From assembly GCA_035570415.1 (NCBI GenBank), contig DATMLP010000009.1:10644-74643 (forward strand): a stretch of DNA of 64,000 nt, read 5' to 3'. Positions 17,135-45,915 of the stretch are shown piece by piece. The DNA is from Solirubrobacteraceae bacterium (GTDB lineage: Bacteria > Actinomycetota > Thermoleophilia > Solirubrobacterales > Solirubrobacteraceae). A program made the translations under genes and the position numbers. Position 1 is the first letter of the stretch. Every line of letters begins with the position of its first letter. A model generated the notes under the pieces. It searched no databases, was not told the origin of the DNA, and worked only from the letters and a program-made list of their open reading frames with translations.

Positions 17135-20100
17135 TCACCCAAGCAGTTCGCGCGCGGTGCCAAGCTGGAGCTGGTAGCGACCCCGGTATTCTTCGGCGGG
17201 CCGCTCGATTTCGTCGATCCATTCACCGTAATTGGAGGGGTCGGAGCCGAAGTGGCGGTCGGCCATCTGGCTCTTGACGGCGAGCGCCTGGTCGATGAAC
17301 CACTTCAACTGCAACGCCGGGTCGTGCGGGTAGCCGGCGTATTGGCCGTTGTCCCACACGCTGGTGCGCATCTGGAAGTACCCGAGCGAGTCGCGGTCGC
17401 CGAAGGAGTCGTTGTGGAGACTCGACTCGACCAGCGATGCCATCACCGGCAGCTCGCGCGGCAGCCCGTGCTTCTGCGCAATGTCGCCCATCCACTGCGC
17501 GATGTCGGCCTTCGGCGCATTGTCGCCGGGGTAGGGGATCGTGCCCGACGCCAGGTCGCTCGCTCCGACGACGGCGTCGGCCCCTCCCCCAGTGCCAGGT
17601 GCGGCTTCGGCGGCGCCGCCTGGGCCGGGCGCTGTGTCGGCGGCGCTCCCCGTGCCGGGGGCCGCTTCGGCGGCGCTCCCGCTTCCCGGCGCGCCCGCCG
17701 CGGTGGAAGCGCCGGCGGGCTGAGTCGCGGCTTGGTCGACGGCAGCCTGAACCTGGGGCGAGGCATTCGAAGACGGCTGGACCGCCTGGAGGAATTTCAC
17801 CGTGTGCAGGGAGGCCCCCGAAACGTGCGGCGACGCGGCACTGAAAACACCCGTACCCGATTGGACGGGTGGCACTCCAGCGACCTGGGCGCCACCGGGT
17901 ACTTCGGCGCCGGAGGCCACCGCCGCGCCCGCGCCCGGCGCGGGGCTGCCGGCTGCGGCCGCGCCAGCGCCAGGAGCGCCACCGGGGATCGCGGCGGCAC
18001 CGGGCACAGACGCCGCCGATGGGACCACCGAGGGCGAGGACGCACCTCCTGGAGCACCACCAGCCGCAACCACGCCTCCCGGAGCGCCACCGGGCGCCTG
18101 GACCTGAGGGAGCACGGCAGCATACTGCGGTCGCACCGCACCGGTTACTTCGCTCGGCGAATAGGTGTGTTCGGTGACGTTGTTTTCGTAGTTGCCCGCG
18201 ATCGTGTGGATCCCTTCGCCGTCGACCTTCACGACCATCGCCACGTGCTCGCTGCCGCCGAAAGTGACGAGATCGCCAGGGCGCACGGCGCCGATCGGCA
18301 GGATGCCTTTCTCAAAAGGCCCTTCGCCGTTCTTGGCCATCTCCAGGATCGAAGCGACCGACGCGATCGAGTCGGGCACTTTCAGCCCCGCGTGCTCCAG
18401 CGCGTGGCCGACGAAAATGCCACACCAGGGAGCGCCGTGGAAGCCGAACGCCCCCTCGAAGCGATTGAGCGCGGGCCCCACGTTTTCGCCTTCGCTCTCC
18501 GGCAGCTTGTGCAGCATCGAGTGCGCCCACGAAAGGGCCACGGCGGCGCCGCTCTCGCTACGCGCCTGCGGAGCCGCAAATGCCTCCACCGCTGGGGCCG
18601 GCGTGGCGTAAACCGCCCCGTCGGGTGACGCGGAGATCGCGGGCGAGGCCGCGCCCGCGCCAGGTGACGCGGAGAACGCAGCAGCGCCGGGCGCCGCTCC
18701 GGCGGGAGGAGCCTGGTAGTCGCCGACCGAGGTGAACGCGAGATGCAGTCGATTCTCGTGCTGGGCGTCGGTGAAAAAGCCCTGCGACTGGATTGGCCAC
18801 GGCGTGCCGATCTCGCTGGGGCGCACGCCCGGTTCCAGCGCCGCGATCTCCGTGATCAGATCGCGGGCGGCCACATTGCCGGGGCCGACCGGCTGTCCGT
18901 CGACGGAGACGATGTCGATCGCCTGCGCGTGCACAGGTTCGGTGGTCGTCTCGATGTCGCCGATCACGATGTTGTGGTGGGCCACCGCACTGTCGAGCAC
19001 CGACACGATCCGGGGGTCAACGTTGCCCTGCGCGAAGATCGTCCGCACGTCCGGCGGCAGCGCCAGGTGCGGGCTGTTCAACAGCTCGGCCAGCCCGGGC
19101 GAGCCCGTTCCGGTGGTGGGAAGGGCGGGCGCCTGCCCCGCGAGGTCTGCCACCTGAGCCGCCGCTGCGCCGCCGCCGGCCGGAGTTTGCGCGGGTTCCG
19201 GCCAGACCGGCACGGCGCCGCCGGCGGCCGGCTGCGCGCCCGGCGCCGGGGGGGTTGGCGGTGGCACCGGCGTCCCGGCCCCACCGCCTGCCGGCGCGCC
19301 TCCCCCACCGACGGGCTGCGATGGAGCGGGCGTCCCGGCCGGTGCCACTTCCGGTGCGCCGTGAGCGGGTACGGGGGTTACCGGCGCTCCCACCGCGGGT
19401 GCCTCGCCCGCGTTCGCGGCGGCAGCCGCGCCGCTGGGTGGGGGTGGCCCCCACGAGGAGCCACCCGAGCCGCTCGCGATCGAGCCGCCCGAAGCTGGAG
19501 CACCCGGTGACGCCGCCGCCTCGGCACCGCCCGGCGTGGCCGTCCCCGCGACGGCGCCACCAGGGGTGGACGCTCCCGGTGCGCCACCCGGAGCGGATGC
19601 GGCGGCCGACGTCGAGGCGGCGCCCCCCGGTGCCGCGCCCGCCGGTGCAGCTGTGCCAGCCGCGCCCCCCGGCGCGGCCGTGCCCGCGGCGGCGCCACCG
19701 GGTGCGCCAGTACCTGGCGCGGCCCCCGGGGCGCCCGACCCCGAGCTCTGCCCGGCCTCGTGGGCGAGTGCCGAGGCGCGCTCGGCCGCGCCCACCGGGT
19801 TGTGCGAGGCGCCGCTCAGCGGGTTCTCGGCGCGCAGCTCGGAGTGCAGGCTGCTGGCGGGGTGAAGCGGGTTGACGCCGCGCAGCGCGCGCTCGCCGGC
19901 GGCGCCCAGGTTGCCTTTGAGCAGTCCGTGCTCAACCAGGCCGTGCAGCTCCACCACGCCGATGCCCTCGGCCGCGACGGCCATCACCACGCCGGCGAGG
20001 CTCGACTTCGACTCGCGCACTTCCAGGGTGTGCATCGATTTGCCGCCCTCGCCGAGCTCGGTGGCGAGGTCGGCGAGGCCGAGCGTGCGGCAGGCGCCGG

Positions 20101-20218
20101 CGGGGTCCTTGCGGAACTCGGCGCGGAAATGGGCGTCCGCCAGCAGCCGTTCGATCAGCTGGCCGGCCTTCTGCGCGTAATCGTCAGCGGATGACACGGT
20201 TGACCTCCGTCGTCCCAT
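17135..20218 (-). CDS. Multi-domain peptidoglycan hydrolase (LAS/M15-like + CHAP + SLT-like lytic transglycosylase), no signal peptide seen
   Basis: CHAP module: GAPWCGIFVGHALEHAG...GDLVTFGGSEHVAMVV...IHTIAGNYENNVTEH. C-terminal SLT-like module: MASLVESSLHNDSFGDRDSLGYFQM. The central module with VHAQAIDIV...DAQHENRLHLAF resembles a LAS metallopeptidase (tentative). Long Ala/Pro/Gly linkers join the modules. The track start at 20659 runs out of frame over the upstream gene. I use the ATG at 20218 (MGRRRSTVSSADDYAQKAG). Confidence 0.75.
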   Translation of the reverse strand: MGRRRSTVSSADDYAQKAGQLIERLLADAHFRAEFRKDPAGACRTLGLADLATELGEGGKSMHTLEVRESKSSLAGVVMAVAAEGIGVVELHGLVEHGLLKGNLGAAGERALRGVNPLHPASSLHSELRAENPLSGASHNPVGAAERASALAHEAGQSSGSGAPGAAPGTGAPGGAAAGTAAPGGAAGTAAPAGAAPGGAASTSAAASAPGGAPGASTPGGAVAGTATPGGAEAAASPGAPASGGSIASGSGGSSWGPPPPSGAAAAANAGEAPAVGAPVTPVPAHGAPEVAPAGTPAPSQPVGGGGAPAGGGAGTPVPPPTPPAPGAQPAAGGAVPVWPEPAQTPAGGGAAAAQVADLAGQAPALPTTGTGSPGLAELLNSPHLALPPDVRTIFAQGNVDPRIVSVLDSAVAHHNIVIGDIETTTEPVHAQAIDIVSVDGQPVGPGNVAARDLITEIAALEPGVRPSEIGTPWPIQSQGFFTDAQHENRLHLAFTSVGDYQAPPAGAAPGAAAFSASPGAGAASPAISASPDGAVYATPAPAVEAFAAPQARSESGAAVALSWAHSMLHKLPESEGENVGPALNRFEGAFGFHGAPWCGIFVGHALEHAGLKVPDSIASVASILEMAKNGEGPFEKGILPIGAVRPGDLVTFGGSEHVAMVVKVDGEGIHTIAGNYENNVTEHTYSPSEVTGAVRPQYAAVLPQVQAPGGAPGGVVAAGGAPGGASSPSVVPSAASVPGAAAIPGGAPGAGAAAAGSPAPGAGAAVASGAEVPGGAQVAGVPPVQSGTGVFSAASPHVSGASLHTVKFLQAVQPSSNASPQVQAAVDQAATQPAGASTAAGAPGSGSAAEAAPGTGSAADTAPGPGGAAEAAPGTGGGADAVVGASDLASGTIPYPGDNAPKADIAQWMGDIAQKHGLPRELPVMASLVESSLHNDSFGDRDSLGYFQMRTSVWDNGQYAGYPHDPALQLKWFIDQALAVKSQMADRHFGSDPSNYGEWIDEIERPAEEYRGRYQLQLGTARELLG

Positions 20219-22181
20219 AGCGTAGCCGCCGCCACAGCGGCAGCCCGAGCGTGAGCCCGATGGGGATGAACAGCACGACCCAGAAGAGAATGAACACCGC
20301 GACCACCGCGCCGGGTGGCGCGATATGCACGAGCCGGTCGTAGTAGCGCGTGGAGAAGACCACCACGAACGCAGCCGCCAACACGGTCCACACCAGCGCG
20401 AAGATGCCGTAGCGCAGCAGCACCGGGGAGTCCTCGGCGCTTGGAGCGGCGCCGGACAGCCGCTGGGAGAGCTGGCGGCGGGCGCGCTGGCGCAGGCCCG
20501 GCTCGCGCAGCACGTCGACGAGGATGTGGTAGCCGTCGCGGTCGAGGAACGGGTTGAGGTTGAAGAACGCGCCGACGTAGGAGCCGAACGCGAGCTGGAA
20601 GAACACGTCGCGCACCGACCCCGCCGGCCACACCGCGCAGAGGAAGGAGAACAGCGCACCGAAGGAGAGGTCGGAGATCGGCCCGGCGGCGGAGATCACG
20701 ATGCGATGCGCGCGGGGCTCGAAATACGCCTCGGAGGTGTCGACGAAGGCGTAGGGGAACAGCAGGATCAACCGCAATCCGCCGCTGGCCGGCCGCCGGC
20801 CGTAGTGGACGAGCGCCATTCCGTGGGCCAGCTCGTGCACCATCACGAGGGCGAAGCGGCCGACGATGTAGACCGCGCCGCCGAGCACCAAACGGTTGGC
20901 GACGACAAACGGCGTGCCGTAGCGCGCGCCGACGATGTAGGAGAACGCGGCGAAGCCCGCGAGTGCAAACAGCGCGAGGAAGGTGAGCGTGAGCGGCGAG
21001 AAAAACAACCGGCCCCAGCGGCGGTAGGCACGTTCACAGCGCTCGCCCACCCAGTCGTAGGTGCGCTGGCGCGGCTGCAATATCCGCGCCAGACGGCTCC
21101 CGGAGGGCGCGGCTCCCGCCCTGTCGATCCTCGCCCCCTTCCTGGCCATCCGGCCCAGCTTCGCCTCGCCCTTCCCGATCTTCTGCATCCCCTTCGCCAG
21201 CGCCACGCGCTCCACCCCGCCGACCCCTCCTCCCGCCAGCGCCGCGCGCTCCATGCCAGATGCCAGCCCCTTACCTTCCTTGGCGGCACCGCCCACCCCG
21301 CCCTTGGCCGCACCTCCAGCGCCCGGACCACCGTACGCAGTACCACCCACGCCTCCTTGCACCGCGCCGCCCGCTCCCAAACCCGCCTGCCCCGCACCTC
21401 CCGCGGTCCCTGACGCGTGGCCATCCACCCCGACCACTCCGTCGAGCAGCCCCCTGTCCCCCAGCTCGGCGAGCAGGCGTGCGAGGCGGCCCGGGCCGGT
21501 TGGTCCGAGCGCGCGTTCGGCGGTGCCGAGCAGCTCCATCACGGTGTGGCTTCCGTCGAGCATTTCGAACAACGCCGCGTCCTCGGCGTCCATCCGCAGG
21601 AAGCCGCCGTCGCGCAGGTCGCGCAGCACGAAGCGCCGCTCGCCCTCGTCGGCGCCCAGCCGCTTGAGCGCCCAGCCGGAGCGCACGCGGGGCCGCATGC
21701 GGCCGTCCGGGATCGATCGGGCTCCCCCGGGTGCGCCGGGCGGGCTGGCGCCGGTGGCGGCGGCCGGACGCAGGCCGAGTTGGGTGGCGCCGACCGGCAT
21801 CACGACGGTCTCGCCCGCACCCGCCGGCAGCTCCTGTGCAAGCGGAGGCGGTGGGCCGTCGGAGTGGATCACGAGCATGACGTCGCCCACGCGGATCTCG
21901 CTGCCCACGCGAAGTGGCCGCGGCTCGGTGACCGCCGCGCCGTCGAGCAGCGTGCCGAAACGCGAGCCGGTGTCCTCCAGCAACGGCCCGGCAGGGCCGG
22001 GGAGGATGCGGGCGTGGGCGCGTGAGACGGTCGGGGCGAGAATCCGCACGGTGGCCTGCTCGCCGCGGCCGATCGTCAGCTCGCCCGCGATCGGCACCCG
22101 CGAGCCGTCCGGCAGCACCAGCACCAGTGACTCCGACGTGGCGGTGGCACCCGGCACGGAGAGCCTGCGGGTGTCAGCCAT
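20184..22181 (-). CDS. FHA-domain / M50-like membrane metalloprotease fusion
   Basis: N-terminal FHA (LTIGRGEQATVRILAPTVSRAHARI...GSRFGTLLDG...IRVGDVMLVI). Next a cNMP-binding-like segment (RFVLRDLRDGGFLRMDAEDAALFEMLDG), then a Gly-rich spacer. The C-terminal polytopic region carries HELAHGMALVHYG and FPYAFVDTSEAY (site-2-protease/M50-like). ATG with GGAG upstream. Confidence 0.75.
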   Translation of the reverse strand: MADTRRLSVPGATATSESLVLVLPDGSRVPIAGELTIGRGEQATVRILAPTVSRAHARILPGPAGPLLEDTGSRFGTLLDGAAVTEPRPLRVGSEIRVGDVMLVIHSDGPPPPLAQELPAGAGETVVMPVGATQLGLRPAAATGASPPGAPGGARSIPDGRMRPRVRSGWALKRLGADEGERRFVLRDLRDGGFLRMDAEDAALFEMLDGSHTVMELLGTAERALGPTGPGRLARLLAELGDRGLLDGVVGVDGHASGTAGGAGQAGLGAGGAVQGGVGGTAYGGPGAGGAAKGGVGGAAKEGKGLASGMERAALAGGGVGGVERVALAKGMQKIGKGEAKLGRMARKGARIDRAGAAPSGSRLARILQPRQRTYDWVGERCERAYRRWGRLFFSPLTLTFLALFALAGFAAFSYIVGARYGTPFVVANRLVLGGAVYIVGRFALVMVHELAHGMALVHYGRRPASGGLRLILLFPYAFVDTSEAYFEPRAHRIVISAAGPISDLSFGALFSFLCAVWPAGSVRDVFFQLAFGSYVGAFFNLNPFLDRDGYHILVDVLREPGLRQRARRQLSQRLSGAAPSAEDSPVLLRYGIFALVWTVLAAAFVVVFSTRYYDRLVHIAPPGAVVAVFILFWVVLFIPIGLTLGLPLWRRLRYGTTEVNRVIR

Positions 22182-22262
22182 GGAGCAGCTCCGGGGTCAC
22201 GGTGGCACCGGGCACAGGGCGCCGGCGGTCGCCAGAGAGCCGGCGGGTGTCAGCCATGGAGC
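22143..22262 (-). repeat. Duplicated copy of the FHA-gene start region, creating a 27-codon relay uORF
   Basis: The sequence ggtggcacc.ggcac...gagagcc.gcgggtgtcagccatggagc occurs at 22143-22186 and again at 22201-22262, the second time with an 18-nt insertion. Each copy carries ATGGCTGACACCCGC. Confidence 0.8.
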
Positions 22263-24895
22263 GTCACCGGCTGCCACGCCGGGTGTGAGGCGCCGGTCGC
22301 GATCACGGTCTCGACCGACGGGTTGGCGGGCGAGATCGTCACGATGTTGCCGGTCGGGTCCTGGCAGGGAGAGTCGGCCTGCATCACCGCCAGCTCTTCG
22401 CCGTCGGAGCGCCAGCTCACCTGGCAGGCGGCGACCGGCAGCGCCTTGGCCTGGGCGAGCGTGAATTCGTCGGCGGGCGCGAGGTAGAGGTGAAAGCCGC
22501 CGCCGCCGAAGTTGGCGATCAGCGCGAGCTGCTTGCCGTTGGGCGAAAACACCCCCGCGATCACCCCTTCGTTGGTGTGCGCGTCGCTGGTGACGAGCGT
22601 CCCGTGCCCCCAGTTGGAGGCCTGGGTGGAGAACGGGACGTTGGAGACGAACTCGATCAAACCGAACGTCCCGGGGTGACCGGTTTGCACCCCGAACACG
22701 AGCAGCGACGAGCCGTCCGGCGCCCACGAGATCTGGCGGCCGAGTTCCCAGCCCGGGTGGGAGGTGCAGTCGGGAGCCAGCACGTACGGCCCGATCGTCG
22801 CGAAGCACAGCTGCGATGAGCCGCCGTGGTCTTCGACGTAGGCGAGGATGTTGGCTTTGGTGGTGGGGGCAAACGCGGGGTCGTGGGCATCGGCTTCGGT
22901 GCCGGTGAGCCCGACCGGCTGGGCGCCCGACTTGCCGGCCGCCAGCAGCTCCAGGCCGTTGCCCTGGCGGTAGACGAGGTGGGAGCCGTCGATGCTCCAC
23001 GACGCCTCCTCCTGGCTCTGCGTGGAGGTCGGAACCTTCACCACCGGCTTGCCGCTCGCGCCGTCCACGACCTGCACGGCGGTGCCGTTGTCGTAGGAGA
23101 GGTCGGGGAAGCCGGCGGACACGAGCACCGCGACCTTCGTGCCGGCCTTCACCTTCGTGCCCGCCGACGGGGAGCTGCCGATCAGCGCGCCCTTGGCGGC
23201 GGAGGCGAAGCGTTCGGAGGTGGAGGGCACCAGCCCGAGCTGGGAGAGCGCCGCGGCGGCCGCGGTGGGGGCGCCGCTGAGCTTGGGGATCGTCACCGCG
23301 CCGCCCTTCCCGGCCGCGGCGGCCCCGGCAGCGCCCGCCGCCGCTCCCGCCGCGGCCGCGCCTGCCGCCTTCGCGGCGCCACCGGCCTTGCCGGGGGGGG
23401 CGAGGAACACCGCGACCGGCGTGCCGGCCGGCACGGTTTCGTTGGCGGCCGGAATCTGGGAGGCGATCTTGCCGGTGGGGTTCACCGGCTGCGGGGAGAT
23501 CGCTCCCAGCGCCACCCCGGCGGTGCGCAGCGCCCCCGCGGCGGTGACGGGCGTCAGTCCAATCACCGAGGGCACCTTGTCCTTGCCCGTGCCCTTGGCC
23601 ACCTCGATCGTGACGAGCGAGCCCTTCTTGACGTGCTTGCCGGCGGCGGGCGACTGTTCGACGATCGTGCCCGGCCGGACTTCCGGCTTGGTCACCTCGC
23701 CGACCTGGGGGGAGAGCTTCAGGCCGGCTTCGCCCAGGAGCTTCTGCGCGGCAAACACGCTCGACGCCTTCTCCAGGTTGGGCACCGTGGTCTTCTTCGG
23801 CAGCAGCAACAGGAGCGCCACCACGGCGAGCGCGACGAGCGGGGCGACGATCGACAGCCACCACGGCAGCCACGCCCGCTGGCGGTAAACCGCGGCGCGC
23901 GGCGGCGAGGGCTGGTCTGAGCCCACGGGCGTGGCCGTCACCCCCAGGCGCCGATCGTGCGGGCGCCCAATCCAGTGCTGGCGCGGCGGGAAAACGGTGA
24001 ACGGCGCCTCGATCGCCTGCCCGGGCTCCACCGCGATCGTGGGCTCGGCGAAGCGGAAATGACATTCGTCGTCGGCGTCTTCGGCGGCCACCGCTACGTC
24101 GGTGGGGGCGTTGGCGCGGTTGTGCACGGTGAGCACGAAGCGGGCTTTCAAACGGCCGGAGGCCCGCTCTGGCCGAAGTTCGCTGGCCACGTCCTGGTAG
24201 GGACCGATCGTCACCGTCGCGGGCGCGCGCGCCACCTCGGAGCCGTACGCGCGCGAGGTGGCCGTCACCTCCAGCGGCCACGCCCCCGCGAGCGCCTCGG
24301 GCGCGCGCGGGGGATGCAGGATGATCTGGACCTCCTGCTCATAGATGCCGCCGGCGCCGTAGGGGACCAGATAGGCGGTGGGTGGTGTCACCGTCCACCA
24401 CCCGTCGGGCATCCCGGCGACGGCGATGTCGTAGTTGTCGACGATCGCTCCCTGGTTGCGGATCAGCCCGAGGATCGTGACGCGCCCGCCCGGGTCGACC
24501 CGCACCTCGACGGGACCCTCGACCGGGCCTTCGTCCTCGGGCCGGCGCAGCAGCAGCGATGCCACCCCCGGAGGCGCCTCGGCGCGGGCCGGCGCCACGT
24601 CCGCGCCGGCGGGAGGCGAGGCGAAGGCGCCAGCTCCCGGCATTTGGTTGGGAGCGGCTCCGGTCGCCGGGGTGGGCGCGGCCCGGCTCCCCGCCGCGGC
24701 GCTCGGAGCGAGCGTGAGGTTGGGATCTCCCACCTCCCCCTTTCCCCCTGCCTCCGAGCCCGGCCCCGCAGCGGCGCCCCCCGGAGGCTTGACGGCTGAG
24801 ACGAACGACGTCGGCTCCCAACGCAGGTACTCGCCACACGCGCAGAAATCCGAGTCCTCGGCGTTCTCGCGCCCGCAGCTCTGGCAGATCCTCAC
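22250..24895 (-). CDS. Zn-ribbon / Ig-like / single-TM / 3x PASTA / TolB-like beta-propeller membrane protein
   Basis: 881 aa, GTG start. N-terminal MRICQSCGRENAEDSDFCACGEYL zinc ribbon. Two CARDB/Ig-like segments. One TM helix (WWLSIVAPLVALAVVALLLLL). Three PASTA-like units (VPNLEKASSVFAAQKLLGEAGLK..., VPSVIGLTPVTAAGALRTAGV..., IPKLSGAPTAAAAALSQLGLV...). C-terminal WD40-like/TolB-like repeats (SWSIDGSHLVYRQ, ISWAPDGSSLLVF, FSPNGKQLALI, VSWRSDGEELAV). Confidence 0.75.
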   Translation of the reverse strand: MRICQSCGRENAEDSDFCACGEYLRWEPTSFVSAVKPPGGAAAGPGSEAGGKGEVGDPNLTLAPSAAAGSRAAPTPATGAAPNQMPGAGAFASPPAGADVAPARAEAPPGVASLLLRRPEDEGPVEGPVEVRVDPGGRVTILGLIRNQGAIVDNYDIAVAGMPDGWWTVTPPTAYLVPYGAGGIYEQEVQIILHPPRAPEALAGAWPLEVTATSRAYGSEVARAPATVTIGPYQDVASELRPERASGRLKARFVLTVHNRANAPTDVAVAAEDADDECHFRFAEPTIAVEPGQAIEAPFTVFPPRQHWIGRPHDRRLGVTATPVGSDQPSPPRAAVYRQRAWLPWWLSIVAPLVALAVVALLLLLPKKTTVPNLEKASSVFAAQKLLGEAGLKLSPQVGEVTKPEVRPGTIVEQSPAAGKHVKKGSLVTIEVAKGTGKDKVPSVIGLTPVTAAGALRTAGVALGAISPQPVNPTGKIASQIPAANETVPAGTPVAVFLAPPGKAGGAAKAAGAAAAGAAAGAAGAAAAGKGGAVTIPKLSGAPTAAAAALSQLGLVPSTSERFASAAKGALIGSSPSAGTKVKAGTKVAVLVSAGFPDLSYDNGTAVQVVDGASGKPVVKVPTSTQSQEEASWSIDGSHLVYRQGNGLELLAAGKSGAQPVGLTGTEADAHDPAFAPTTKANILAYVEDHGGSSQLCFATIGPYVLAPDCTSHPGWELGRQISWAPDGSSLLVFGVQTGHPGTFGLIEFVSNVPFSTQASNWGHGTLVTSDAHTNEGVIAGVFSPNGKQLALIANFGGGGFHLYLAPADEFTLAQAKALPVAACQVSWRSDGEELAVMQADSPCQDPTGNIVTISPANPSVETVIATGASHPAWQPVTLHG

Positions 24896-24959: not shown

Positions 24960-25613
24960 TCACGGACCCTCCTCCTTCGCGCGGGCCCGTGGCGCCTTCA
25001 CGCGCAGGCGAAAGCCGGTGTGGGCAGGCTTGGAGCGTTCGATCAGGCGCGCGATCGCCGCCTGCGTGTCCTCCGGCACGGGCTGCTCGCAGTACACCAC
25101 GAACGATGGGCGACCCACGGGCGGGGGCGTGTCGGGCTCGGTCGACCACGACACGCCGCCGCCATCCTCGATGCGGAACGGCACACCGGGGAACGCAAGC
25201 TCCAGCGCCAGCTCCAGCCCCGCGCGCGTGCCCCGCAGGCGCAGCAGCTCGGCGGCGCCCCGCACCAGCTCGCGGCGCTCCTCGCCGAGACGGAACTCGT
25301 CGCGTTCCTGGCCGAGCCACGCGGCCAGCAGCTCGAGCACGTCGGGGGGAGCGTGGCGGGGGTCGAAGTGGGCCGGGAGGTTGTCCAGCAGCGCCACCAC
25401 CGGGTCCAGCAGGTGCTCCAGCGCGCCGACGAAGCGCATCCCGAAGTCCCCCTCGCGGTAGACCGCCGGCAGCCCGGTTCGCAGGTAAGCGCGAGCGGAC
25501 ACCGGCGCCGGCGGGGGATCCTCGCCCACCACGCGCCGCATCTGGATCGTCCCGAAGCCGCCGCCCGCGAACGTGCGCCCGTTGCCATCGCCGTTTGGGT
25601 GCTCGCTCGCCAC
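24960..25613 (-). CDS. CIS baseplate protein, phage P2 tail protein I-like
   Basis: LPAVYREGDFGMRFVGALEHLLDPVVALLDNLPAHFDPRHAPPDVLELLAAWLGQE...RRELVRGAAELLRLRGTRAGLELAL matches the phage-tail-protein-I domain pattern. Directly downstream of baseplate J. Confidence 0.8.
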   Translation of the reverse strand: MASEHPNGDGNGRTFAGGGFGTIQMRRVVGEDPPPAPVSARAYLRTGLPAVYREGDFGMRFVGALEHLLDPVVALLDNLPAHFDPRHAPPDVLELLAAWLGQERDEFRLGEERRELVRGAAELLRLRGTRAGLELALELAFPGVPFRIEDGGGVSWSTEPDTPPPVGRPSFVVYCEQPVPEDTQAAIARLIERSKPAHTGFRLRVKAPRARAKEEGP

Positions 25614-25620: not shown

Positions 25621-27615
25621 TTAAAGCTCCCGGTGCGTCGCTTTCACCACGTGGGATCCGGAGGCGATCAGCTCGTCGTCCTCCAGCGGCAGGTGGCCGC
25701 CGAGCGGCTTGGCGGCCTGCTCGCCGGTGGCGAGGTCGGTCTCGTACAGCCGCAGGATCTTGACGAACTCGACGCCCTCGATCGCGTGCACCACGCCAAA
25801 CAGCTCGCCCTGGTTGAGCGCGCGCCCGAACGGCCAGCCCTCGCCGGGGCCGTGCGGGGAGCCGCCGATCAACGGGTTGAGGTAGGTGTAGAGCGCATGC
25901 TCCACGTCCTGCTCCACGCGCTCGGGGTCGGCGAGCGGAGAGACCTGCAGGTTGACGACCACCGACACCGCTTTGAAGCGCACCGGCAGCAGGTGCACCG
26001 CGGTCCCGATCAGACGGCGCTCGTCGAGGTAGGCGGCGATCTCGCTCAGCAGCTCCTCGCCGGGCGTCAGCTCCTCGAGCGTCAGCCGCCGGTCGGCGGG
26101 ATCCACGCGGGGGAGCACGTGCACGCAGATCGGGCCCTCGCCGGAGGGCGGCACACAGATCGCGCGCGCCGCCTGGGGGGACGCGTGCACCGCGAGCAGC
26201 TCGAAGTCCTCGGCGGTCACGGCGCGATCGCGGGAGCGGATCTCAAGCGCCGCCCGCTCGCGCGCCGAGGCCAGCGACTCGGCGTCCACCCCGCCGAGCG
26301 CGGGGCGCGGGTTGGTGACCGAGGCGACGGACGGGATCGCGGTCTTGAGCACCGTGAGGGTGTCGGCGGCGACGTTGCCGGCGCGCCCGCCTCCATGGCG
26401 GTAGCGGCTGAAGCGCAGCGCCGCGCCGTTGGGAGGGATCGCACCGTACTGGCGCCAGCCGCCGTTGGGCTGGCGCACGGCGGGACCGAGCGCCACCTCC
26501 CCGTTGGCCGCGTCGAGCACCGCGTGGCGGTCGTGCGGGCCGCTGGCGGCGAAACTCTCGCGCATCTCCCACGCGCGCCACGTCTCGGCTCCGGGCTCGC
26601 GCACCTCGAGCGTCTCGCCGGCGGCGGGGCTCAGCACGGGGCGGTTGCGCAGGCGCAGGACGGCGCCCGGGGTGCCGTCGGCGACACCGAGCGACTCGTG
26701 GCGCTCGCTGGCGGCGTGCGCCGCCGGCAGCACAGCTCCCACGGGGGCCGCCGTGATCTCGTAAACCTCGGGGGCGTGCGAGTAGGTCACGCCGACCGCG
26801 CCCGAGCGGGTGCGGTCATGCAGGCGGCAGCGCAGCCAGTGCATGCGGTGCCCGGCGATCGCGTGGATCGCCGAGTGGCGGGGCAGCTCCAGCGTGATCG
26901 TGCCGGCGCCGAAGTTGAAGCCGCCGGTCAGATCCTCCAGCACCGTCGCCTCGCTCCAGGAGCCGTCGGCGCCCGACACCTCCCAGCGCAGCGGCGGATC
27001 CTCGGGGTCCACGCCGGCGCCGCGCGCGTGCGAGCCGTCGAACTCGACCTGCATCACCAGCCGCCCGATCGGGTGGGCAAAACCGAGCAACAATGCGTCG
27101 CCGACCTGTGGCGGGGAGGCGAACGGCGCGCGGTCGGCGCCGGTCGGCTTGGCGCGGCCGCGGGCCACGCCGACGTCCTTGACCGCCCCGGCGCGCTGCA
27201 CCGCGTAGGCGGCGGGCCGCTGCGGCTCGATCGCCAGACCCTCCGTGACCTGGAAGACGATCGCGGGCTCGTCGGTGGTGCGTACCGTGCCGACCTCGGT
27301 TTCCACGGCCGGGATCTCGACGGTCTCCTCGACGGGACCGGCGAGCATGAAGCGGACCTCGGTCGCGGCGGCGGCGGGCGGGGCGAGCTGCACGCCGAGC
27401 AGCTCCAGCAGCGCCACGTGCAGCTTGTCGGGAATGCGGTTGACGCGGTACAGCAGCGTGTCGGTCATCCACGCAAACAGCTCGATCAGCGTGATGCCGG
27501 GGTCGGAGACGTTGTGCTCGGTCCACTCCGGGCAAGCGAGCGCGATCCGCGTGCGGGCCTCGGAGACGAGATCCTGAAAGCCGCGGTCGTCGAGCGTGAT
27601 CTCGGGCAGGCTCAT
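25621..27615 (-). CDS. CIS baseplate protein, Baseplate J / gp6-like
   Basis: MSLPEITLDDRGFQDLVSEARTRIALACPEWTEHNVSDPGITLIELFAWMTDTLLYRVNRIPDK is the characteristic N-terminus of eCIS/phage baseplate-J assembly proteins. 664 aa. ATGA overlap with gp25-like. Confidence 0.85.
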   Translation of the reverse strand: MSLPEITLDDRGFQDLVSEARTRIALACPEWTEHNVSDPGITLIELFAWMTDTLLYRVNRIPDKLHVALLELLGVQLAPPAAAATEVRFMLAGPVEETVEIPAVETEVGTVRTTDEPAIVFQVTEGLAIEPQRPAAYAVQRAGAVKDVGVARGRAKPTGADRAPFASPPQVGDALLLGFAHPIGRLVMQVEFDGSHARGAGVDPEDPPLRWEVSGADGSWSEATVLEDLTGGFNFGAGTITLELPRHSAIHAIAGHRMHWLRCRLHDRTRSGAVGVTYSHAPEVYEITAAPVGAVLPAAHAASERHESLGVADGTPGAVLRLRNRPVLSPAAGETLEVREPGAETWRAWEMRESFAASGPHDRHAVLDAANGEVALGPAVRQPNGGWRQYGAIPPNGAALRFSRYRHGGGRAGNVAADTLTVLKTAIPSVASVTNPRPALGGVDAESLASARERAALEIRSRDRAVTAEDFELLAVHASPQAARAICVPPSGEGPICVHVLPRVDPADRRLTLEELTPGEELLSEIAAYLDERRLIGTAVHLLPVRFKAVSVVVNLQVSPLADPERVEQDVEHALYTYLNPLIGGSPHGPGEGWPFGRALNQGELFGVVHAIEGVEFVKILRLYETDLATGEQAAKPLGGHLPLEDDELIASGSHVVKATHREL

Positions 27616-28031
27616 CGCTGTGGCTCCGGGGGCGCGAGCTCCTCCGCGGGGATCACGTAGAAAGGGTAGACCAGGTTGCGCACGTCGTTGGCCGCCACCA
27701 CACGGTAGGCGATGTCGATCACCAGTTCCCCGCGGGCGGCGCGCGAGGTGTCGAAACCGACGCCGATCACCTCGATGCGCGGCTCCCAGCGCTTGAGCGC
27801 CACGCGCACCTCGTGCTCGATCCGGCCCATCGCGTAGGAGTCGACCCGCTCGAACACGTAGTCGTGCACGCCGCAGCCAAACTCCGGTCGCATCGGCCGT
27901 TCCCCCGGCGCGGTGGCGAGGATCAGCGCGATCGCCTGCTCGACGTCGGTCTCCTCGTGCGCCAGCGCGATGCCGCCGCGCCGGTCGACCTGCAGTGGAA
28001 AGGCCAGCCCGGCGCCCAGGAAGTCGCTCAT
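27612..28031 (-). CDS. CIS baseplate wedge protein, gp25/GPW-like
   Basis: 139 aa: FLGAGLAFPLQVDRRGGIALAHEETDVEQAIALILATAPGERPMRPEFGCGVHDYVF is the gp25-lysozyme-like pattern. This is only the last 139 codons of track ORF 27612..29099. The ATG at 28031 overlaps the VgrG stop (ATGA). Confidence 0.85.
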   Translation of the reverse strand: MSDFLGAGLAFPLQVDRRGGIALAHEETDVEQAIALILATAPGERPMRPEFGCGVHDYVFERVDSYAMGRIEHEVRVALKRWEPRIEVIGVGFDTSRAARGELVIDIAYRVVAANDVRNLVYPFYVIPAEELAPPEPQR

Positions 28032-29701
28032 CCCAGCATCACCTGCGCGCCTGAGATCTGCACCACGCCATCGGCTTCGATCGTGATCGCCGGCGCCTTG
28101 ATCGTGACGGCGGCCTGCGATTCGACGGTCACCGAGGCGCCGCCCTTGACCGTCACCGAACCCTGCGCTTCCAGCGAGCGTTCGCCCTGCACTTCCTCGG
28201 TCAACCCCTGCTGCGCGGTGACCTTCATGTCGGCTTCGGAGATCAGTTGGAGCGTCTTTCCGCTTTCGATTGTCACGCCCTCGGCGGCCTTGACGGACAC
28301 CGCCTTGTCGGAGCCGAGCGCGAACGAGCCGTCGGTTTGCGAGAGTTCCTTCGGCTTCGATTGGCCGTTGAACAGCGAGCCGAGCACGAACGGCCGGCGC
28401 ACGTCGCCGTGCTCGAAAGCCAGCAACACCTCGTCGCCGACGATCGGCATCATCATCACGCCGCGGCCTTCGCCGGCGGAGATCGAGACGACGCGCGCCC
28501 ACCACCCCTCCGTGTCTTCCCCGAGCGCCGGGTACTTCACGCGCACCCGCCCCAGCCCTTCGGGGTCTTCGTTCTGGGTGACCACGCCGACTACCACCGA
28601 ATCCCCCCACGAGCGCTTGGCGGCCGGGGTCATCAGGTCGACGAGGCTGCGCGGCGAGCGCCCCGTCACCGAGAAGTGCGTTTCGTAGCCCTTCGCGCCG
28701 CGAAACACGTGCGTCACCGCGGACAGCGAGTAGGTGCCCGAGAAGCGAACGCCTACCTTTTCGATCTTCACTTTGGAGCCGGCGCGGATGCGCGGGTCGC
28801 CGTGGCAGGAGCCGTCGGCCTCGACGAACGCGTTGCCGAGGTGCGCGGCGACGCTGCTGGCCAGGGCATCCGCCTCGGCCTGCGTCATCACCGGCCGGTC
28901 GGCGACCGTCATCGTGCCACCGCCCAGCGATTCCACGACACCGTCGCGTTCGATCCCCATCGTGGAGCTCGGCGAGTCGGCGGTGGCGGTGGATTCGATC
29001 ACCTGCTTGGTCGAGGGGTCCCAGCCGCGCACGAGCACTTCGTGCATCTGCTGCACTCCCGTCACGCGCGGGCGGAAGGAGACCAGCTGCGCGCCCCACG
29101 CGAGCGTCACCGGTTCAGCATCGGCCATACCGCCGGCTTCGCGGAAGTGCATTTCTTTGTCCACCACCACCACCTCGAAGTCGATCGCGCCCGCGAGCCG
29201 CCACAGGAACTCCCAGTCGGACTCGTTGCTCTGCTGGATGAAGTCGTGGGGCGCGCCGGCCGCTTCGATCGTCCCGGGCTGCAGGCCCGAGCGCGCGGCG
29301 ACCTTGCGGGCGATGTCGTCGGCGGTGGCGTTCTGGTAGGTCTGCGTGCGCTTGGTGCGGTGCATCGCGTGGGAGTTGTCGTAGCCGCGCAGCGCCACAT
29401 AGGCGCCGCCGGCGGAAAACTCCGGTTCCAGGGCCGTGACCTGGCCCTTGAAAACCGGCTGCAGGGAGCCTTCGTGTGCGGAGGCCAGCAGGATTTCGAC
29501 TTCGGCGCCGATTTCGTACACGGCGGAGTCGACCTGTTTCATGTCGGGGTCGGAGATGCGCATCAAAAAGGTGTCGGGGAGCATCAGGTTCTCCTGGATG
29601 CGCACCTCGATCAGCTTCTGCAGCACCGTCGGTGCGAGCGCTTGCCCGCCGAGACGCACTTCGATGCCGGCGACGACGCCTTTGGTCGCGGCGGGGCTCA
29701 T
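28028..29701 (-). CDS. CIS spike/hub protein, VgrG / phage late control D-like
   Basis: 557 aa from the ATG at 29701 (ATGA overlap with the LysM gene). gpD/gp27-like N-terminal region, then an OB-like segment (GVVTQNEDPEGLGRVRVKYPALGE...WARVV). A C-terminal beta-helix repeat follows (VSVKAAEGVTIESGKTLQLISEADMKVTAQQ...VTVKGGASVTVESQAAVTIKAPAITIEADG). Confidence 0.85.
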   Translation of the reverse strand: MSPAATKGVVAGIEVRLGGQALAPTVLQKLIEVRIQENLMLPDTFLMRISDPDMKQVDSAVYEIGAEVEILLASAHEGSLQPVFKGQVTALEPEFSAGGAYVALRGYDNSHAMHRTKRTQTYQNATADDIARKVAARSGLQPGTIEAAGAPHDFIQQSNESDWEFLWRLAGAIDFEVVVVDKEMHFREAGGMADAEPVTLAWGAQLVSFRPRVTGVQQMHEVLVRGWDPSTKQVIESTATADSPSSTMGIERDGVVESLGGGTMTVADRPVMTQAEADALASSVAAHLGNAFVEADGSCHGDPRIRAGSKVKIEKVGVRFSGTYSLSAVTHVFRGAKGYETHFSVTGRSPRSLVDLMTPAAKRSWGDSVVVGVVTQNEDPEGLGRVRVKYPALGEDTEGWWARVVSISAGEGRGVMMMPIVGDEVLLAFEHGDVRRPFVLGSLFNGQSKPKELSQTDGSFALGSDKAVSVKAAEGVTIESGKTLQLISEADMKVTAQQGLTEEVQGERSLEAQGSVTVKGGASVTVESQAAVTIKAPAITIEADGVVQISGAQVMLG

Positions 29702-30387
29702 CGCTGCAGGCGCGGGATCGACAAACGCGCGCCGCGGCGCAGTCGCATGGGGTCGTCGATGCCGTTGGCCTGCGCGATCGCCCGCCACGCGGTCGGGTCG
29801 CCGTAGGCGTCGTAGGCGAGCGACTGCAGCGTGTCCCCGTCGCGCACCGTGCGCGACCCCAGTTCGGCGCGGGCGCGCGTCGTGGGGTTCTGGGGGGGCG
29901 GCACTTCGACGCCCGAGCTGCTGTCGGCGGCTTCCACCTGCACGAGCGACAGCTTGACTTTCGCGCGGATCGGCGTGCCGTCGGGCGCGAAGCGCACGTA
30001 CTGCACCGAGAGGCTCTTCAGGGCCGCTTCGAAGGAGAGCGTGGCACCCCAGGAGAAGGTCAGCTTCGGCGGGCTCGCGGTGGGGTTGCCTTTCCCCGTC
30101 TGCGGCGCGGTCGCGGGGTTGGCTTCCATCGCCAGGAACAGGCGGTTGACTTCCGGTTCGACTTCGTAGGTGCCTTCGAGGTCGTCGAGCAGGATTTCAA
30201 ACGACAGTTCCCGTGGCGACCCGCCGCCGTACTGCACGGGCGGCAGGCTCACGCCCGCGGCCTGCTTGGCGTTCCAGGAGGAGCTCTTGGTGATCGTGTA
30301 TTCCTTGGGGTTGAACAGGCACACCAATGGTTCGGATTCCCCTTCGATCAGGATCTGTGCCTGCTGGAGGTTTTCGACTTCAGCCAT
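29698..30387 (-). CDS. CIS tube-initiator protein with C-terminal LysM (Afp7-like)
   Basis: N-terminal tube-like domain (LVCLFNPKEYTITKSSSW...LSFEILLD). C-terminal LysM (VRDGDTLQSLAYDAYGDPTAWRAIAQANGIDDPMRLRRGARLSIP). Located between the second tube gene and VgrG. Confidence 0.8.
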   Translation of the reverse strand: MAEVENLQQAQILIEGESEPLVCLFNPKEYTITKSSSWNAKQAAGVSLPPVQYGGGSPRELSFEILLDDLEGTYEVEPEVNRLFLAMEANPATAPQTGKGNPTASPPKLTFSWGATLSFEAALKSLSVQYVRFAPDGTPIRAKVKLSLVQVEAADSSSGVEVPPPQNPTTRARAELGSRTVRDGDTLQSLAYDAYGDPTAWRAIAQANGIDDPMRLRRGARLSIPRLQR

Positions 30388-30417: not shown

Positions 30418-31002
30418 TCACTGCACCGCTCCGCTCATGTTGGGGTCCATGCCGGCGTGGCCGAGCTCGAGCGCCTCGGTGGCGGTCTTGTTGGAGGCGG
30501 CGTTCAACGTGGGGCCCTGCCACTTCAGCGGGAAGGCTCCGTTGAACACCCACTGCTGGATCGGCTGCAGGTTGGGCCCGAACAGGGTGATCGTCAGGTC
30601 CGGGCGTTCTTCAGGCGCCTGCGCTTCGAAAAACCATGCGATCAGCGCGTCTTCGGTGGTGATGCCGCGCTTGAGCACGATGTTCGGGTACTTGATGGCG
30701 CCGCGCAGCTTGATCGGCGAGGGCGCACCCCCGGGCAGGTATTCCATCACTTCGTGTTCGGCCTGCAGCCCGGTGCATTCGCTGAACCACCCGATTTCCA
30801 CGCCGGCGATTTCCACCAGAAAGCGCAGCTCGCCGACGGGATCGGGGCGGGTTCCGGATCCCCCGACACCGCCCGTCCCACCGCCGCTTTCTTCTTCGCC
30901 GCCGATCGAGATTTCGACGCTGGGCAGAGCGACTTCGGGCAGAGCGACTTCGAGTTCCATGGAGGGAGTCATCGTAGGTGCCGTCTCGCTTTCATCTCGC
31001 AT
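30418..31002 (-). CDS. CIS inner tube protein 2 (T4 gp19-like) with an acidic/Gly-rich N-terminal extension
   Basis: Core LRFLVEIAGVEIGWFSECTGLQAEHEVMEYLPGG...IKYPNIVLKRGITTEDALIAWF is the gp19/tube signature. A ~55-aa extension precedes it and contains a perfect in-frame 15-bp tandem duplication. Start is ambiguous (31002, 30972 or 30960). Confidence 0.8.
   Translation of the reverse strand: MRDESETAPTMTPSMELEVALPEVALPSVEISIGGEEESGGGTGGVGGSGTRPDPVGELRFLVEIAGVEIGWFSECTGLQAEHEVMEYLPGGAPSPIKLRGAIKYPNIVLKRGITTEDALIAWFFEAQAPEERPDLTITLFGPNLQPIQQWVFNGAFPLKWQGPTLNAASNKTATEALELGHAGMDPNMSGAVQ
30922..30951 (-). repeat. Perfect 15-bp tandem duplication (gggcagagcgacttc x2) inside the tube-2 N-terminal extension
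   Basis: Read directly: 30922-30936 and 30937-30951 are identical. The duplication is in frame and encodes EVALP-EVALP. Confidence 0.9.
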
Positions 31003-33424: not shown

Positions 33425-33542
33425 CAACGGTCTCCCCCACACCCAGCCGCCGTGCCTCGGCCAGGAAGCGGCGACGGTCGGCGTGCTCGAGATCCAGCAG
33501 TGCGTCGAGCGACCAGTGGAAGCGACCCGCGAGGCTGGCCAT
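33417..33542 (-). CDS. Small conserved ORF (HWSLD..LDLEH..RRRF motif). Either standalone or the -1 frameshift extension of the upstream chaperone
   Basis: MASLAGRFHWSLDALLDLEHADRRRFLAEARRLGVGETVDG (41 aa). This is the C-terminal part of track ORF 33417..34001, whose upstream part overlaps the chaperone out of frame. Its only in-frame start, the ATG at 33542, has GGAG directly abutting it, which is poor spacing. Confidence 0.5.
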   Translation of the reverse strand: MASLAGRFHWSLDALLDLEHADRRRFLAEARRLGVGETVDG

Positions 33543-33978: not shown

Positions 33979-34419
33979 CTACTGGCGTTCCAAACCCTCA
34001 TGGCAGATGTGCAGCTCCTCGAGGGCGATCTCGTTGCCGCTGGCGTTGAGCGAGCTGCCGGAGTACTTGATCGGCCAGCCTTCTTTGAACGCGTACGTGG
34101 CGATCGTCGACCCGTTGTAGTCCACCAGCTCGATCGTCCCGTCGACCCGCGCCGATTCGGGGCCTTCCTTGATGACCGTGTCGCGCCACTTCCACAGTTC
34201 CAGGTTCTCGTCGATGCCGCGCTTGAGGGTGATGTTCGACCACTTCGTGGCGCCCGGCACCTTGCGCACGGTGGGCAGGCCGTTGGCGTCGACCGATTTC
34301 TGCTCGATCACGTCGGTCTCCGAGTCGAGACCCGAGCACTCGCGGAACATGCCGACGTTCTCACGGCCGCCGAGGTTGAGGCGGAAGTGGGATGAGGGGC
34401 GTGGCTGCTTGTCCGGCAT
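33979..34419 (-). CDS. CIS inner tube protein 1 (T4 gp19-like)
   Basis: 146 aa: SSHFRLNLGGRENVGMFRECSGLDSETDVIEQKSVDANG...KVPGATKWSNITLKRGIDENLELWKW is a strong gp19/Afp1-type tube signature. Confidence 0.9.
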   Translation of the reverse strand: MPDKQPRPSSHFRLNLGGRENVGMFRECSGLDSETDVIEQKSVDANGLPTVRKVPGATKWSNITLKRGIDENLELWKWRDTVIKEGPESARVDGTIELVDYNGSTIATYAFKEGWPIKYSGSSLNASGNEIALEELHICHEGLERQ

Positions 34420-45345: not shown

Positions 45346-45915
45346 TCAGCCCGTCAGCTCGTCGGCGACGGTCTCGGCCTCGGTCTCCTGCGCGTCGCCA
45401 GGCTCGGAGACGGTGAGCGGCCCGCTGGTGGGGGCGCCGCGCTGCTGCACCACGTGGGTGAGCTCGTGCGCGAGCAGCCGGTCGCCCTCGCCGCTGCCGG
45501 GGCGGTACTCGCCAGTGGCGAAGAACACGTCGCTGCCAGTGGTGAAGGCGCGCGCGGAGACCGAGCGGGCGAGCGCGTCGGCGCCAGCGTCGGTGTGCAC
45601 CCGCACGTCGGCCAGCGGATCGCCGAGCTGCCCGGCGAAGCGCTCGCGCGAGCGCCCGTCGAGCGCACCGCCGCCGCCGCGCCTGCGGGCGATCGTGGCC
45701 TGCACCTCCGGGTGGACGGTGCCGTCAGTCAGGATGCCCGTGCCCTCACGGGAGATCAGCCCGCCGAACGCCCGGTTGCCGACCTCGGAGGCCAGGCGCT
45801 CGCGAGGATCGGGCTCGGGAGCCTCGCGCTGAGACTCCGGCGCGGCCGGCGCGAAGATGCTCTCGGCTTCGCCTTCGCGCTCGACATCCCCCTGGCGATG
45901 GTCGCTCACCGCCAA
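45346..45915 (-). CDS. DUF4157 (zincin HExxH) domain protein, eCIS-associated type
   Basis: 189 aa. LDGRSRERFAGQLGDPLADVRVHTDAGADALARSVSARAFTTGSDVFFATGEY...LLAHELTHVVQQ is the DUF4157 pattern. N-terminal RLASEVGNRAFGGLIS motif. Confidence 0.85.
   Translation of the reverse strand: MAVSDHRQGDVEREGEAESIFAPAAPESQREAPEPDPRERLASEVGNRAFGGLISREGTGILTDGTVHPEVQATIARRRGGGGALDGRSRERFAGQLGDPLADVRVHTDAGADALARSVSARAFTTGSDVFFATGEYRPGSGEGDRLLAHELTHVVQQRGAPTSGPLTVSEPGDAQETEAETVADELTG

Follow-up and report, generated by a model that had tools for sequence, protein, structure and literature searches.

This report concerns a gene at positions 22250-24895 (reverse strand) of a 64,000-nucleotide stretch of DNA from a Solirubrobacteraceae bacterium (GenBank assembly GCA_035570415.1, contig DATMLP010000009.1, positions 10,644 to 74,643), the whole of which is referred to as the window. 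The gene encodes an 881-residue protein in which a single transmembrane (TM) helix is followed by three PASTA domains, and it lies directly behind the baseplate genes of a contractile injection system (CIS). The protein bears on two questions raised for the CIS of Streptomyces, namely how fibre-less cytoplasmic CIS reach the membrane and which signal makes them fire.

The PASTA protein and its conserved position

From N- to C-terminus, the chain consists of a zinc ribbon, a disordered linker, two immunoglobulin-like domains (Ig-Ig), one TM helix, three PASTA units and a TolB-like propeller. The gene, its parts and the two baseplate genes ahead of it are the following, all on the reverse strand:

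25621..27615, reverse strand: Baseplate J (Cis11-like), by Pfam
24960..25613, reverse strand: Tail protein I (Tail_P2_I, Cis12-like baseplate wedge), directly upstream of the PASTA gene, by Pfam
22250..24895, reverse strand: whole PASTA gene, predicted 881-residue bitopic membrane protein (open reading frame (ORF), Pfam, AlphaFold2 model)
24806..24895, reverse strand: N-terminal zinc ribbon, residues 1-30, C4xxC7...C18xC20 GEYLRWEPT, predicted cytoplasmic; CisA-ribbon-like, with C20 GEYLRWE invariant
24563..24805, reverse strand: disordered Ala/Pro/Gly-rich linker, residues 31-111, predicted cytoplasmic; holds a conserved DPNxTLAP
23870..24562, reverse strand: two PapD/ASH-like Ig domains, residues 112-342, predicted cytoplasmic (model and homology to Streptomyces CIS-cluster proteins)
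23801..23869, reverse strand: sole TM helix, residues 343-365 (hydrophobicity; the alignment to a Streptomyces protein crosses it)
23111..23794, reverse strand: three PASTA units, residues 368-435, 437-499 and 533-595, predicted extracytoplasmic (Pfam, PDB search, model)
22262..23107, reverse strand: TolB-like beta-propeller, residues 597-878, with four invariant Cys, predicted extracytoplasmic (model, Foldseek)

The third-position GC content of the gene (0.91) is typical for real genes in this 72%-GC sequence. Its GTG start is supported by a Shine-Dalgarno-like run, GGGGGAGGG, just 5' of the start, and by the conservation of N-termini among the homologues. The Tail_P2_I gene, itself preceded by Baseplate_J, ends 64 nt before the PASTA gene on the same strand, and no terminator-like site was found between the baseplate genes and the PASTA gene.

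An AlphaFold2 model based on a 54-sequence alignment (mean pLDDT 79) begins with a small ribbon, leaves residues 27-104 disordered, folds residues 112-340 into two beta-sandwich domains (pLDDT about 90), and places a helix at 346-364, the PASTA units at 368-434, 437-498 and 533-593, and a propeller at 598-874. Pfam recognizes three PASTA stretches (E=1.3e-25), which are separated between units 2 and 3 by an Ala/Gly linker, together with weak matches to PD40 (E=8.5e-4), zinc-ribbon and FixG_C Ig-like models; no kinase and no transpeptidase family was matched in this search of the 881-residue protein. A match to the NCBIfam model PknB_PASTA_kin covers the TM helix and PASTA domains only (residues 337-498, profile 328-494), with the kinase part of the model outside. 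The best PDB matches of Foldseek are the TolB propellers 7mx5 (E=3.4e-11) and 2ojh and, for the PASTA part, the ectodomains of PrkC/Stk1 from S. aureus and of PknB from M. tuberculosis; the PDB sequence search agrees with the PASTA matches.

Exactly one hydrophobic segment (343-365) is present in the protein, and no signal peptide is predicted. Four Cys of the C-terminal domain are invariant (697, 710, 824 and 844), four further Cys make up the N-terminal ribbon, and between residues 21 and 696 the sole Cys is C278. The single TM helix, the lack of a signal peptide, the zinc ribbon at the N-terminus, the PASTA units after the helix and the C-terminal Cys together fit an N-in/C-out topology. 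Much of this had been proposed in the original prediction, which was made from the sequence without database searches. The order of zinc ribbon, TM helix, three PASTA units and propeller is recovered by Pfam, AlphaFold2 and Foldseek; the PASTA domains are indeed fused to neither a kinase nor a penicillin-binding protein (PBP), with no Pkinase or transpeptidase match; and the ORF coordinates agree with the 64-nt gap to tail protein I on the same strand. For the predicted sidedness, with ribbon and Ig domains inside and PASTA and propeller outside, neither TM prediction nor the AlphaFold2 model nor the Cys pattern indicates an inverted arrangement.

A homologue search returned 394 sequences at E<=1e-5, mostly full length and about 50% identical. 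They come only from metagenomes and metagenome-assembled genomes (MAGs) of Solirubrobacterales type, the nearest being MAGs labelled Solirubrobacterales or Solirubrobacteraceae, and they are named in the databases only as 'PASTA domain-containing' or 'beta-lactam-binding protein with PASTA domain'. A genome scan yielded 59 loci, all in MAGs (Solirubrobacterales, Conexibacteraceae, Gaiellales and unclassified Actinomycetota), 57 of which have enough upstream DNA for a synteny count. The Tail-I gene lies at most 500 bp upstream in 48 of these 57 loci and 3-6 kb away, with inserted genes, in six more; it is missing in three, namely a locus whose flank measures just 2.9 kb, a rearranged locus, and L052, around which no CIS occurs up to a distance of 8 kb. 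A divergent clade (about 34% identity) retains both the architecture and the gene position. In the inverse test, 80 metagenome loci were collected with Baseplate J as the seed. Of these, 38 belong to the same clade (at least 50% identity) and have Tail-I plus at least 400 bp beyond it; the PASTA gene follows Tail-I in 33 of the 38, in 32 of them within 600 bp. Synteny of the PASTA gene with CIS baseplate genes is near-universal in both directions, and the lack of synteny in relatives that would have refuted the original prediction was not seen.

Some further observations concern these loci. A single long-read survey of soil supplied many of the MAGs (L001-L059), none of the 59 hits comes from a cultured isolate, and frameshifts typical of long-read assemblies occur in L046, L055 and L058. 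The six loci with a 3-6 kb insert between Tail-I and the PASTA gene are L005, L008, L018, L032, L037 and L042, and the inserted genes include one for a Big_3_5 Ig-like protein. L059 at first appeared to be a ribbon-only relative, suggestive of ectodomain swapping; this was due to a fragmented BLAST report, and the full ORF has the whole architecture. The exact sequence also occurs in a soil metagenome. In a soil metatranscriptome, parts of three regions (the PASTA gene, spike/gp25, and the third gene downstream) are covered by short contigs of at least 99% identity, which is weak evidence for transcription, since such libraries can contain DNA.

Comparison with CisA and Sco4256-4258

A bitopic accessory protein in the fibre slot of a CIS is already known. 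CisA (SCO4242), which serves the cytoplasmic CIS of Streptomyces coelicolor as its membrane adaptor, is encoded in the same slot after cis11/cis12 and is bitopic with a cytoplasmic N-terminus; contraction in situ depends on it, although it does not belong to the particle as purified (Casu et al., eLife 2025, PMC12237407). AlphaFold-Multimer predicts a contact between Cis11 and the cytoplasmic part of CisA, and a reciprocal CisA match was reported in only 75 of 120 type IId genomes (PMC12237407). The statement in the original prediction that Streptomyces cytoplasmic CIS need a bitopic membrane protein is thereby confirmed. A Cys-rich, putatively Zn-binding segment just before the TM helix of CisA has also been described (Vladimirov et al. 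2023, PMC10020575). The word 'zinc' is absent from the searched text of PMC12237407; the N-terminal ribbon CxxC...FCxxCGx[FY]L[RK]W was observed here in 116 of 120 homologues.

The comparison with CisA started from the CisA-slot protein of a CIS locus on an S. clavuligerus plasmid and was extended to 120 members of its family. The CisA members have a common ribbon at the extreme N-terminus, with the consensus RPCPDCGTPARATGQSFCDSCGAFLRWDTP, and the ribbon of the window family reads RICPSCGRENPDDADFCVCGEYLRWEPT. The pattern C..C...C.{1,2}CG..[LM].W occurs at the extreme N-terminus of 116 of the 120 CisA homologues and of 110 of the 121 PASTA-family members. A hidden Markov model (HMM) of the PASTA-family ribbon scores a median of 16.8 bits on the N-terminal ribbon of CisA versus 6.7 bits on its internal second ribbon; furthermore, in a six-frame background of 2.3 M residues, the best non-self matches of each ribbon HMM are the N-termini of the other family (best E=2.8e-6). 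A full-length profile-profile comparison with CisA aligns the ribbon region only (probability 93%, E=2.9e-7). The CisA-specific part of the signal lies in the [FY]LRW[DE] tail and in the N-terminal position, and the comparison supports, with moderate strength, a relationship between the window ribbon and the N-terminal ribbon of CisA. At the level of the locus, the gene order of the window is collinear with the Streptomyces loci L060 and L144. As a side observation, a conserved strand-like motif, [AS]LL[LV]x[LV]P, follows the linker in both families (SLLLRRPE at residues 112-119 of the window protein, SLLVPVPE at 124-131 of the S. venezuelae CisA P0155); this pairing was aligned by BLASTP and is not significant in the profile comparison.

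The Ig-Ig and TM core, as judged from alignments, is clearly homologous to proteins of Streptomyces CIS clusters. Residues 128-364 of the window protein align with a Streptomyces RICIN-domain protein (L145) encoded between DUF4157 and the CIS ATPase (BLASTP E=2e-24, 30% identity over 237 residues), and this alignment runs through the TM helix. A tblastn search of plasmids with the Ig-Ig region gave matches only in CIS-bearing replicons of Streptomyces, Kitasatospora and Streptantibioticus, in genes annotated as RICIN-domain protein, hydrolase or hydrolytic protein. Among these Ig-Ig-TM-X relatives the N-modules match the PapD_N, ASH and MSP models of Pfam, and the outer domains vary (RICIN, Big_7 Ig arrays and unknown domains). 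No Sco4256-like genes were found with Ig HMMs inside the stretches of the Streptomyces plasmid CIS loci L060 and L144; homologues lie just outside.

The L145 protein fits the type of the S. coelicolor proteins Sco4256-4258, as identified by published description rather than by sequence comparison. All three begin with an N-domain that resembles PapD chaperones, which is followed by a single TM helix and by a C-domain of RICIN (Sco4257/4258) or toxin-like type (Casu et al. 2023, PMC10066040; Vladimirov et al. 2023, PMC10020575). In the triple mutant the tube lumens are mostly empty, a phenocopy of CIS loss, and the proteins are toxic in E. coli (PMC10066040).

The two kinds of protein also meet in more distant CIS loci (Baseplate J 40-43% identity). 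Here, the gene after Tail-I is CisA-type in L134, L137 and L140 and encodes a ribbon-less Ig-Ig-TM-X protein in L132, L139 and L142, and both genes stand in tandem in L131 and in the Kitasatospora plasmid L146. In these tandems (L131 6971-9790, L146 3386-6856) the CisA-type gene, with two ribbons, a TM helix and an NADase-type discoidin domain, comes first and the Ig-Ig-TM-X gene second, an arrangement that may offer a simple route to the fused architecture. In the window and the 59 related loci, the Ig-Ig module is carried only by the PASTA gene. From this restriction, the ribbon likeness and the Ig-Ig and TM homology, the window protein is therefore read as a composite that joins a CisA-like ribbon and an Ig-Ig and TM core of Sco4256 type to a new ectodomain of PASTA units and propeller.

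A search with residues 1-345 returned 3,476 clusters, 185 of them at E<=1e-30, most with the same architecture. Side by side with this family stands a sister clade of about 420-480 residues (P0477, P0438, P0450, P0458, P0506), in which a ribbon (CxxC spacing, YLRW[DE]) and Ig-Ig are joined to four TM helices and a short Cys-containing loop, with no PASTA. The gene of one such variant, P0477 (L062 8001-9341), lies directly upstream of a CIS cap gene.

Downstream partner genes and the surrounding cluster

Two genes follow the PASTA gene on the same strand:

20184..22181, reverse strand: FHA domain fused to an M50-type intramembrane metalloprotease (Pfam, fold search, NCBIfam, motif conservation)
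17135..20197, reverse strand: 1020-residue protein with an NHLP-type leader and a CHAP/TIGR02594-like domain (co-conserved third gene)

In the FHA-M50 protein, HExxH and NxxPxxxxDG are invariant across 42 homologues, and the protease part is polytopic. The best structural match of the FHA part is M. tuberculosis FhaA; where FHA domains usually have SxNG, the protein has SRFG. Its best NCBIfam matches are the intramembrane proteases of daptide and YydH/LiaK maturation, which act on ribosomally synthesized and post-translationally modified peptides (RiPPs), both below the equivalog cut-offs. The family profile matched only FHA structures and no S2P structure in the PDB, and the fold search was likewise dominated by FHA. 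The FHA-M50 gene comes next after the PASTA gene in 50 of 51 loci with enough downstream sequence, the 51st being a BLAST-fragment artefact.

The GTG start of the third gene overlaps the stop of the protease gene by 14 nt. The first ~50 residues of its product resemble a RiPP leader of NHLP/Nif11 type that ends in GG, and an Ala/Gly/Pro-rich body comes after them; the leader is kept in 52 related loci, and the body is variable. A reading of the C-terminus as a lytic transglycosylase, made by eye, gained no support from a phmmer search of the PDB. The protease and the leader-bearing, wall-hydrolase-like protein probably share a functional unit with the PASTA protein. This co-conserved module is new in connection with CIS, as no paper linking the two was found in the literature search. 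No kinase or phosphatase gene that could serve as an FHA partner was found in the window.

One detail of the PASTA protein's linker belongs here. The motif DPNxTLAP (residues 57-64; 24704-24727, reverse strand) stands out in an otherwise disordered segment, and its T61, which is invariant, could, as a candidate phospho-site, be recognized by the FHA domain encoded in the adjacent gene. The DPNxT motif does not occur in the divergent clade (L043-L059) and was for that reason rejected as a general FHA target.

Upstream of the two baseplate genes, the complete eCIS-type cluster comprises these further genes, on the same strand as the PASTA gene:

45346-45915, reverse strand: eCIS_core
43354-45333, reverse strand: AAA ATPase
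36430-37317, reverse strand: Pvc16 cap
34551-36152, reverse strand: sheath
33979-34419 and 30418-31002, reverse strand: tube genes
29698-30387, reverse strand: CIS_tube with LysM
28028-29788, reverse strand: VgrG-like spike
27612-28100, reverse strand: gp25

Baseplate J of the window is 41-44% identical to homologues from Streptomyces and Kitasatospora plasmid CIS, where the gene order is the same. An 803-residue ORF (31031-33442, reverse strand) occupies the tape-measure position between the two tube genes and is patchily conserved in relatives; no model of Pfam, NCBIfam or PHROG matches it, and it did not pass the third-position GC filter. Possible cargo or toxin candidates in or beside the cluster (41729-43357, 45967-47907, 48415-50364 and 50418-51155) comprise a Het-C-domain protein adjoining the AAA ATPase, two Vgb_lyase/NHL-like propeller proteins and one CHAP-domain protein.

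The locus is flanked by a hopanoid/squalene cluster (52284-60729) with genes for a radical SAM/DUF3463 protein, a phosphorylase-family protein, an amine oxidase, two squalene/phytoene synthases and a squalene-hopene cyclase, and a similar gene set lies near one of the four-TM variants (P0506 contig). The left end of the window, which had been taken as non-coding, is instead filled by one giant NHL-repeat ORF (1 to about 5400, reverse strand) of more than 1,600 residues without an in-frame stop, which runs past the window edge; the GC content of this region is about 60% versus about 72% elsewhere in the window. No rRNA, tRNA, tandem repeat or Rfam match was found there.

The proposed role, its alternatives and known systems

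PASTA domains of kinases bind muropeptides and lipid II. Our preferred reading, to which we assign a probability of roughly 0.55, is that the PASTA protein is the membrane docking or trigger adaptor, with a peptidoglycan-binding ectodomain, of a Streptomyces-like fibre-less CIS in Thermoleophilia. The adaptor would sit in the cytoplasmic membrane with its N-terminus inside. Its cytoplasmic ribbon, on a flexible linker, and the two Sco4256-type Ig domains would engage the CIS, most likely at the exposed baseplate wedge of Cis11/Cis12, while the outer PASTA units and the TolB-like propeller would bind peptidoglycan or ligands of muropeptide or lipid-II type. Binding of such a ligand would fix the adaptor to the wall, and its clustering might change upon wall damage or remodelling; the state of the wall could thereby control where or when a particle is recruited to the membrane and fires. 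Since the ligand class of PASTA domains is known, the proposal that cell-wall status triggers firing is directly testable.

A number of observations weigh against this reading. In a control, the second ribbon of CisA also aligned to the window ribbon (hhalign score 37 versus 48 for the N-terminal ribbon), for which reason most of the ribbon signal appears to be generic to zinc ribbons. An hhalign probability of 97.9%, which had seemed decisive for ribbon homology, stood against 96.6% for this control, and the similarity was graded down to moderate on that account. The window protein does not match NADase_discoid or F5_F8_type_C, as CisA homologues do, and has no Cys-rich second ribbon just before the TM helix; as both the C-terminal domain and the second ribbon of CisA are absent, it is not a CisA orthologue. 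One same-clade CIS locus with ample room (L120) lacks the PASTA gene, and L052 has the PASTA gene and the FHA-protease gene with no CIS genes within 8 kb. The linkage of the PASTA gene to the FHA-M50 gene is tighter than that to Tail-I, and two of the three four-TM variants examined are not beside a CIS. Finally, the Streptomyces relatives of the Ig-Ig core have been published as cargo or effectors, not as adaptors (PMC10066040).

The last point leads to the strongest alternative, one that the original prediction did not consider, in which the protein is a Sco4256-4258-type effector or cargo-associated protein, with Ig-Ig serving for loading and the C-terminal part acting as payload or targeting domain. 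The homology of residues 128-364 to the RICIN protein of a Streptomyces CIS cluster (E=2e-24), the fit of that protein to the Sco4256-4258 description (shared N-domain, one TM helix, RICIN C-domain), and the empty lumens, CIS-loss phenocopy and toxicity in E. coli reported for those proteins (PMC10066040) all speak for it. However, the likeness of the Streptomyces homologue to Sco4256-4258 is one of published description, not of sequences. PASTA domains and TolB-like propellers are binding modules rather than toxins, an 881-residue membrane protein with a folded propeller and probable disulfides would be an improbable passenger of a tube lumen, and the gene occupies the CisA/fibre slot and encodes a CisA-like ribbon. 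We regard an effector role as unlikely.

Site-2 proteases of the M50 family cleave single-pass membrane proteins whose N-terminus is inside. A second alternative, which we consider quite improbable, takes the PASTA protein as a wall sensor that works with the FHA-protease and the leader-bearing hydrolase-like protein, either as a regulator or as a substrate of proteolysis, so that its coupling to the CIS is genomic and not physical. The FHA-M50 gene follows in essentially all of the 51 loci, the gene with the NHLP-like leader is next in 52 loci with an overlapping start, and the protease motifs are invariant. The N-in single-pass topology is that of an M50 site-2 protease substrate, an invariant T61 lies in the disordered linker beside an FHA-encoding gene, and L052 has the pair with no CIS genes nearby. 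On the other hand, the protease best matches enzymes that cleave RiPP leaders, and together with the adjacent leader-bearing protein this gives it a more obvious substrate. On these grounds, proteolysis by a site-2 protease was rejected as the main role of the PASTA protein; its mid-TM proline, P352, is not found in the Streptomyces homologue. The DPNxT motif is missing in the divergent clade, the window has no kinase or phosphatase gene, and other lineages that lack the protease also have the ribbon and Ig-Ig modules in association with CIS.

A tail-fibre-like receptor-binding protein, which would bind the wall of target cells through PASTA and propeller on released extracellular particles, would suit the usual fibre gene position, the initial proposal of SCO4242 as a fibre and its detection in purified particles (PMC10020575), and the leading match among viral structures, to an uncharacterised PASTA-containing phage protein, but is highly improbable given the conserved, strongly hydrophobic TM helix mid-protein, the invariant propeller Cys pairs, which suggest export across the producer's own membrane, and the lack of any PHROG or fibre family match and of any fibre among the PDB or viral fold matches.

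Within the adaptor reading, the natural fusion and the side-by-side CisA-type and Ig-Ig-TM-X genes predict that CisA and Sco4256-type proteins cooperate. Since the topology is fixed by the homologous TM region, they predict in addition that members of the 'effector' family place the Ig domains in the cytoplasm and the lectin outside. A bolder extension, which we hold to be unlikely, is that the fusion reflects joint action of the CisA ribbon and Sco4256-type Ig domains at one CIS interface. In this extension, the whole Sco4256 family would be bitopic, with cytoplasmic Ig and wall- or glycan-binding ectodomains, and not luminal cargo. A peptidoglycan-derived ligand read by PASTA would trigger firing and would be wired to the FHA-gated protease that matures the leader-bearing wall hydrolase, in a circuit that leads from wall damage to firing and autolysis.

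What is new in the Solirubrobacterales-type family is a different ectodomain, of PASTA and propeller, and a fused core of Sco4256 type, the latter likeness being by description. In the full-text literature, no paper was found that joins contractile injection systems with PASTA domains, nor one on CIS accessory genes of Solirubrobacterales.

Several known systems share parts of this arrangement. As in the kinases PknB, PrkC and Stk1, tandem PASTA domains lie outside the membrane just after a single TM helix (matches 3py9, 3m9g, 5e12 and 2kui). Unlike these kinases and the PASTA PBPs, the window protein has no kinase or transpeptidase domain, and any signal would have to reach the non-enzymatic domains in the cytoplasm through clustering or conformation. 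The C-terminal propeller of TolB is the best fold match (7mx5, 2ojh), whereas the sequence similarity is weak (PD40 E=8.5e-4; TIGR02800 18 bits versus a cut-off of 343), the N-terminal domain of TolB is absent, and the organism is of Gram-positive type, with no Tol-Pal context. The thylakoid CIS of Anabaena is likewise tethered through a TM helix, in a protein that is either attached to the baseplate or encoded together with it (as cited in PMC10020575), although its anchoring proteins and its membrane are different.

The two closest counterparts are found in Streptomyces. In Sco4256-4258, by description, as in the window protein, a PapD/ASH-like Ig module at the N-terminus leads into a single TM helix, the outer domain is variable, and the gene belongs to a CIS cluster. 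The window protein differs from them in its additional N-terminal ribbon and linker and in an outer part made of PASTA and propeller, in which no C-terminal lectin (RICIN) or toxin-like domain was found, and its gene lies in the CisA slot as a single copy in its locus. CisA differs in its ~150-residue C-terminal NADase-type/discoidin domain and second ribbon, in place of which the window protein has Ig-Ig, three PASTA units and a propeller; the two are not reciprocal-BLAST orthologues, and their profile alignment is confined to the ribbon. Both, however, are encoded after cis11/cis12 in collinear, fibre-less CIS clusters, and both are single-pass proteins with a cytoplasmic N-terminus, a long disordered linker and an extracytoplasmic domain of glycan-binding type, in the window protein by prediction; their zinc ribbons, each at the very N-terminus and with [FY]L[RK]W at its end, resemble one another with moderate support.

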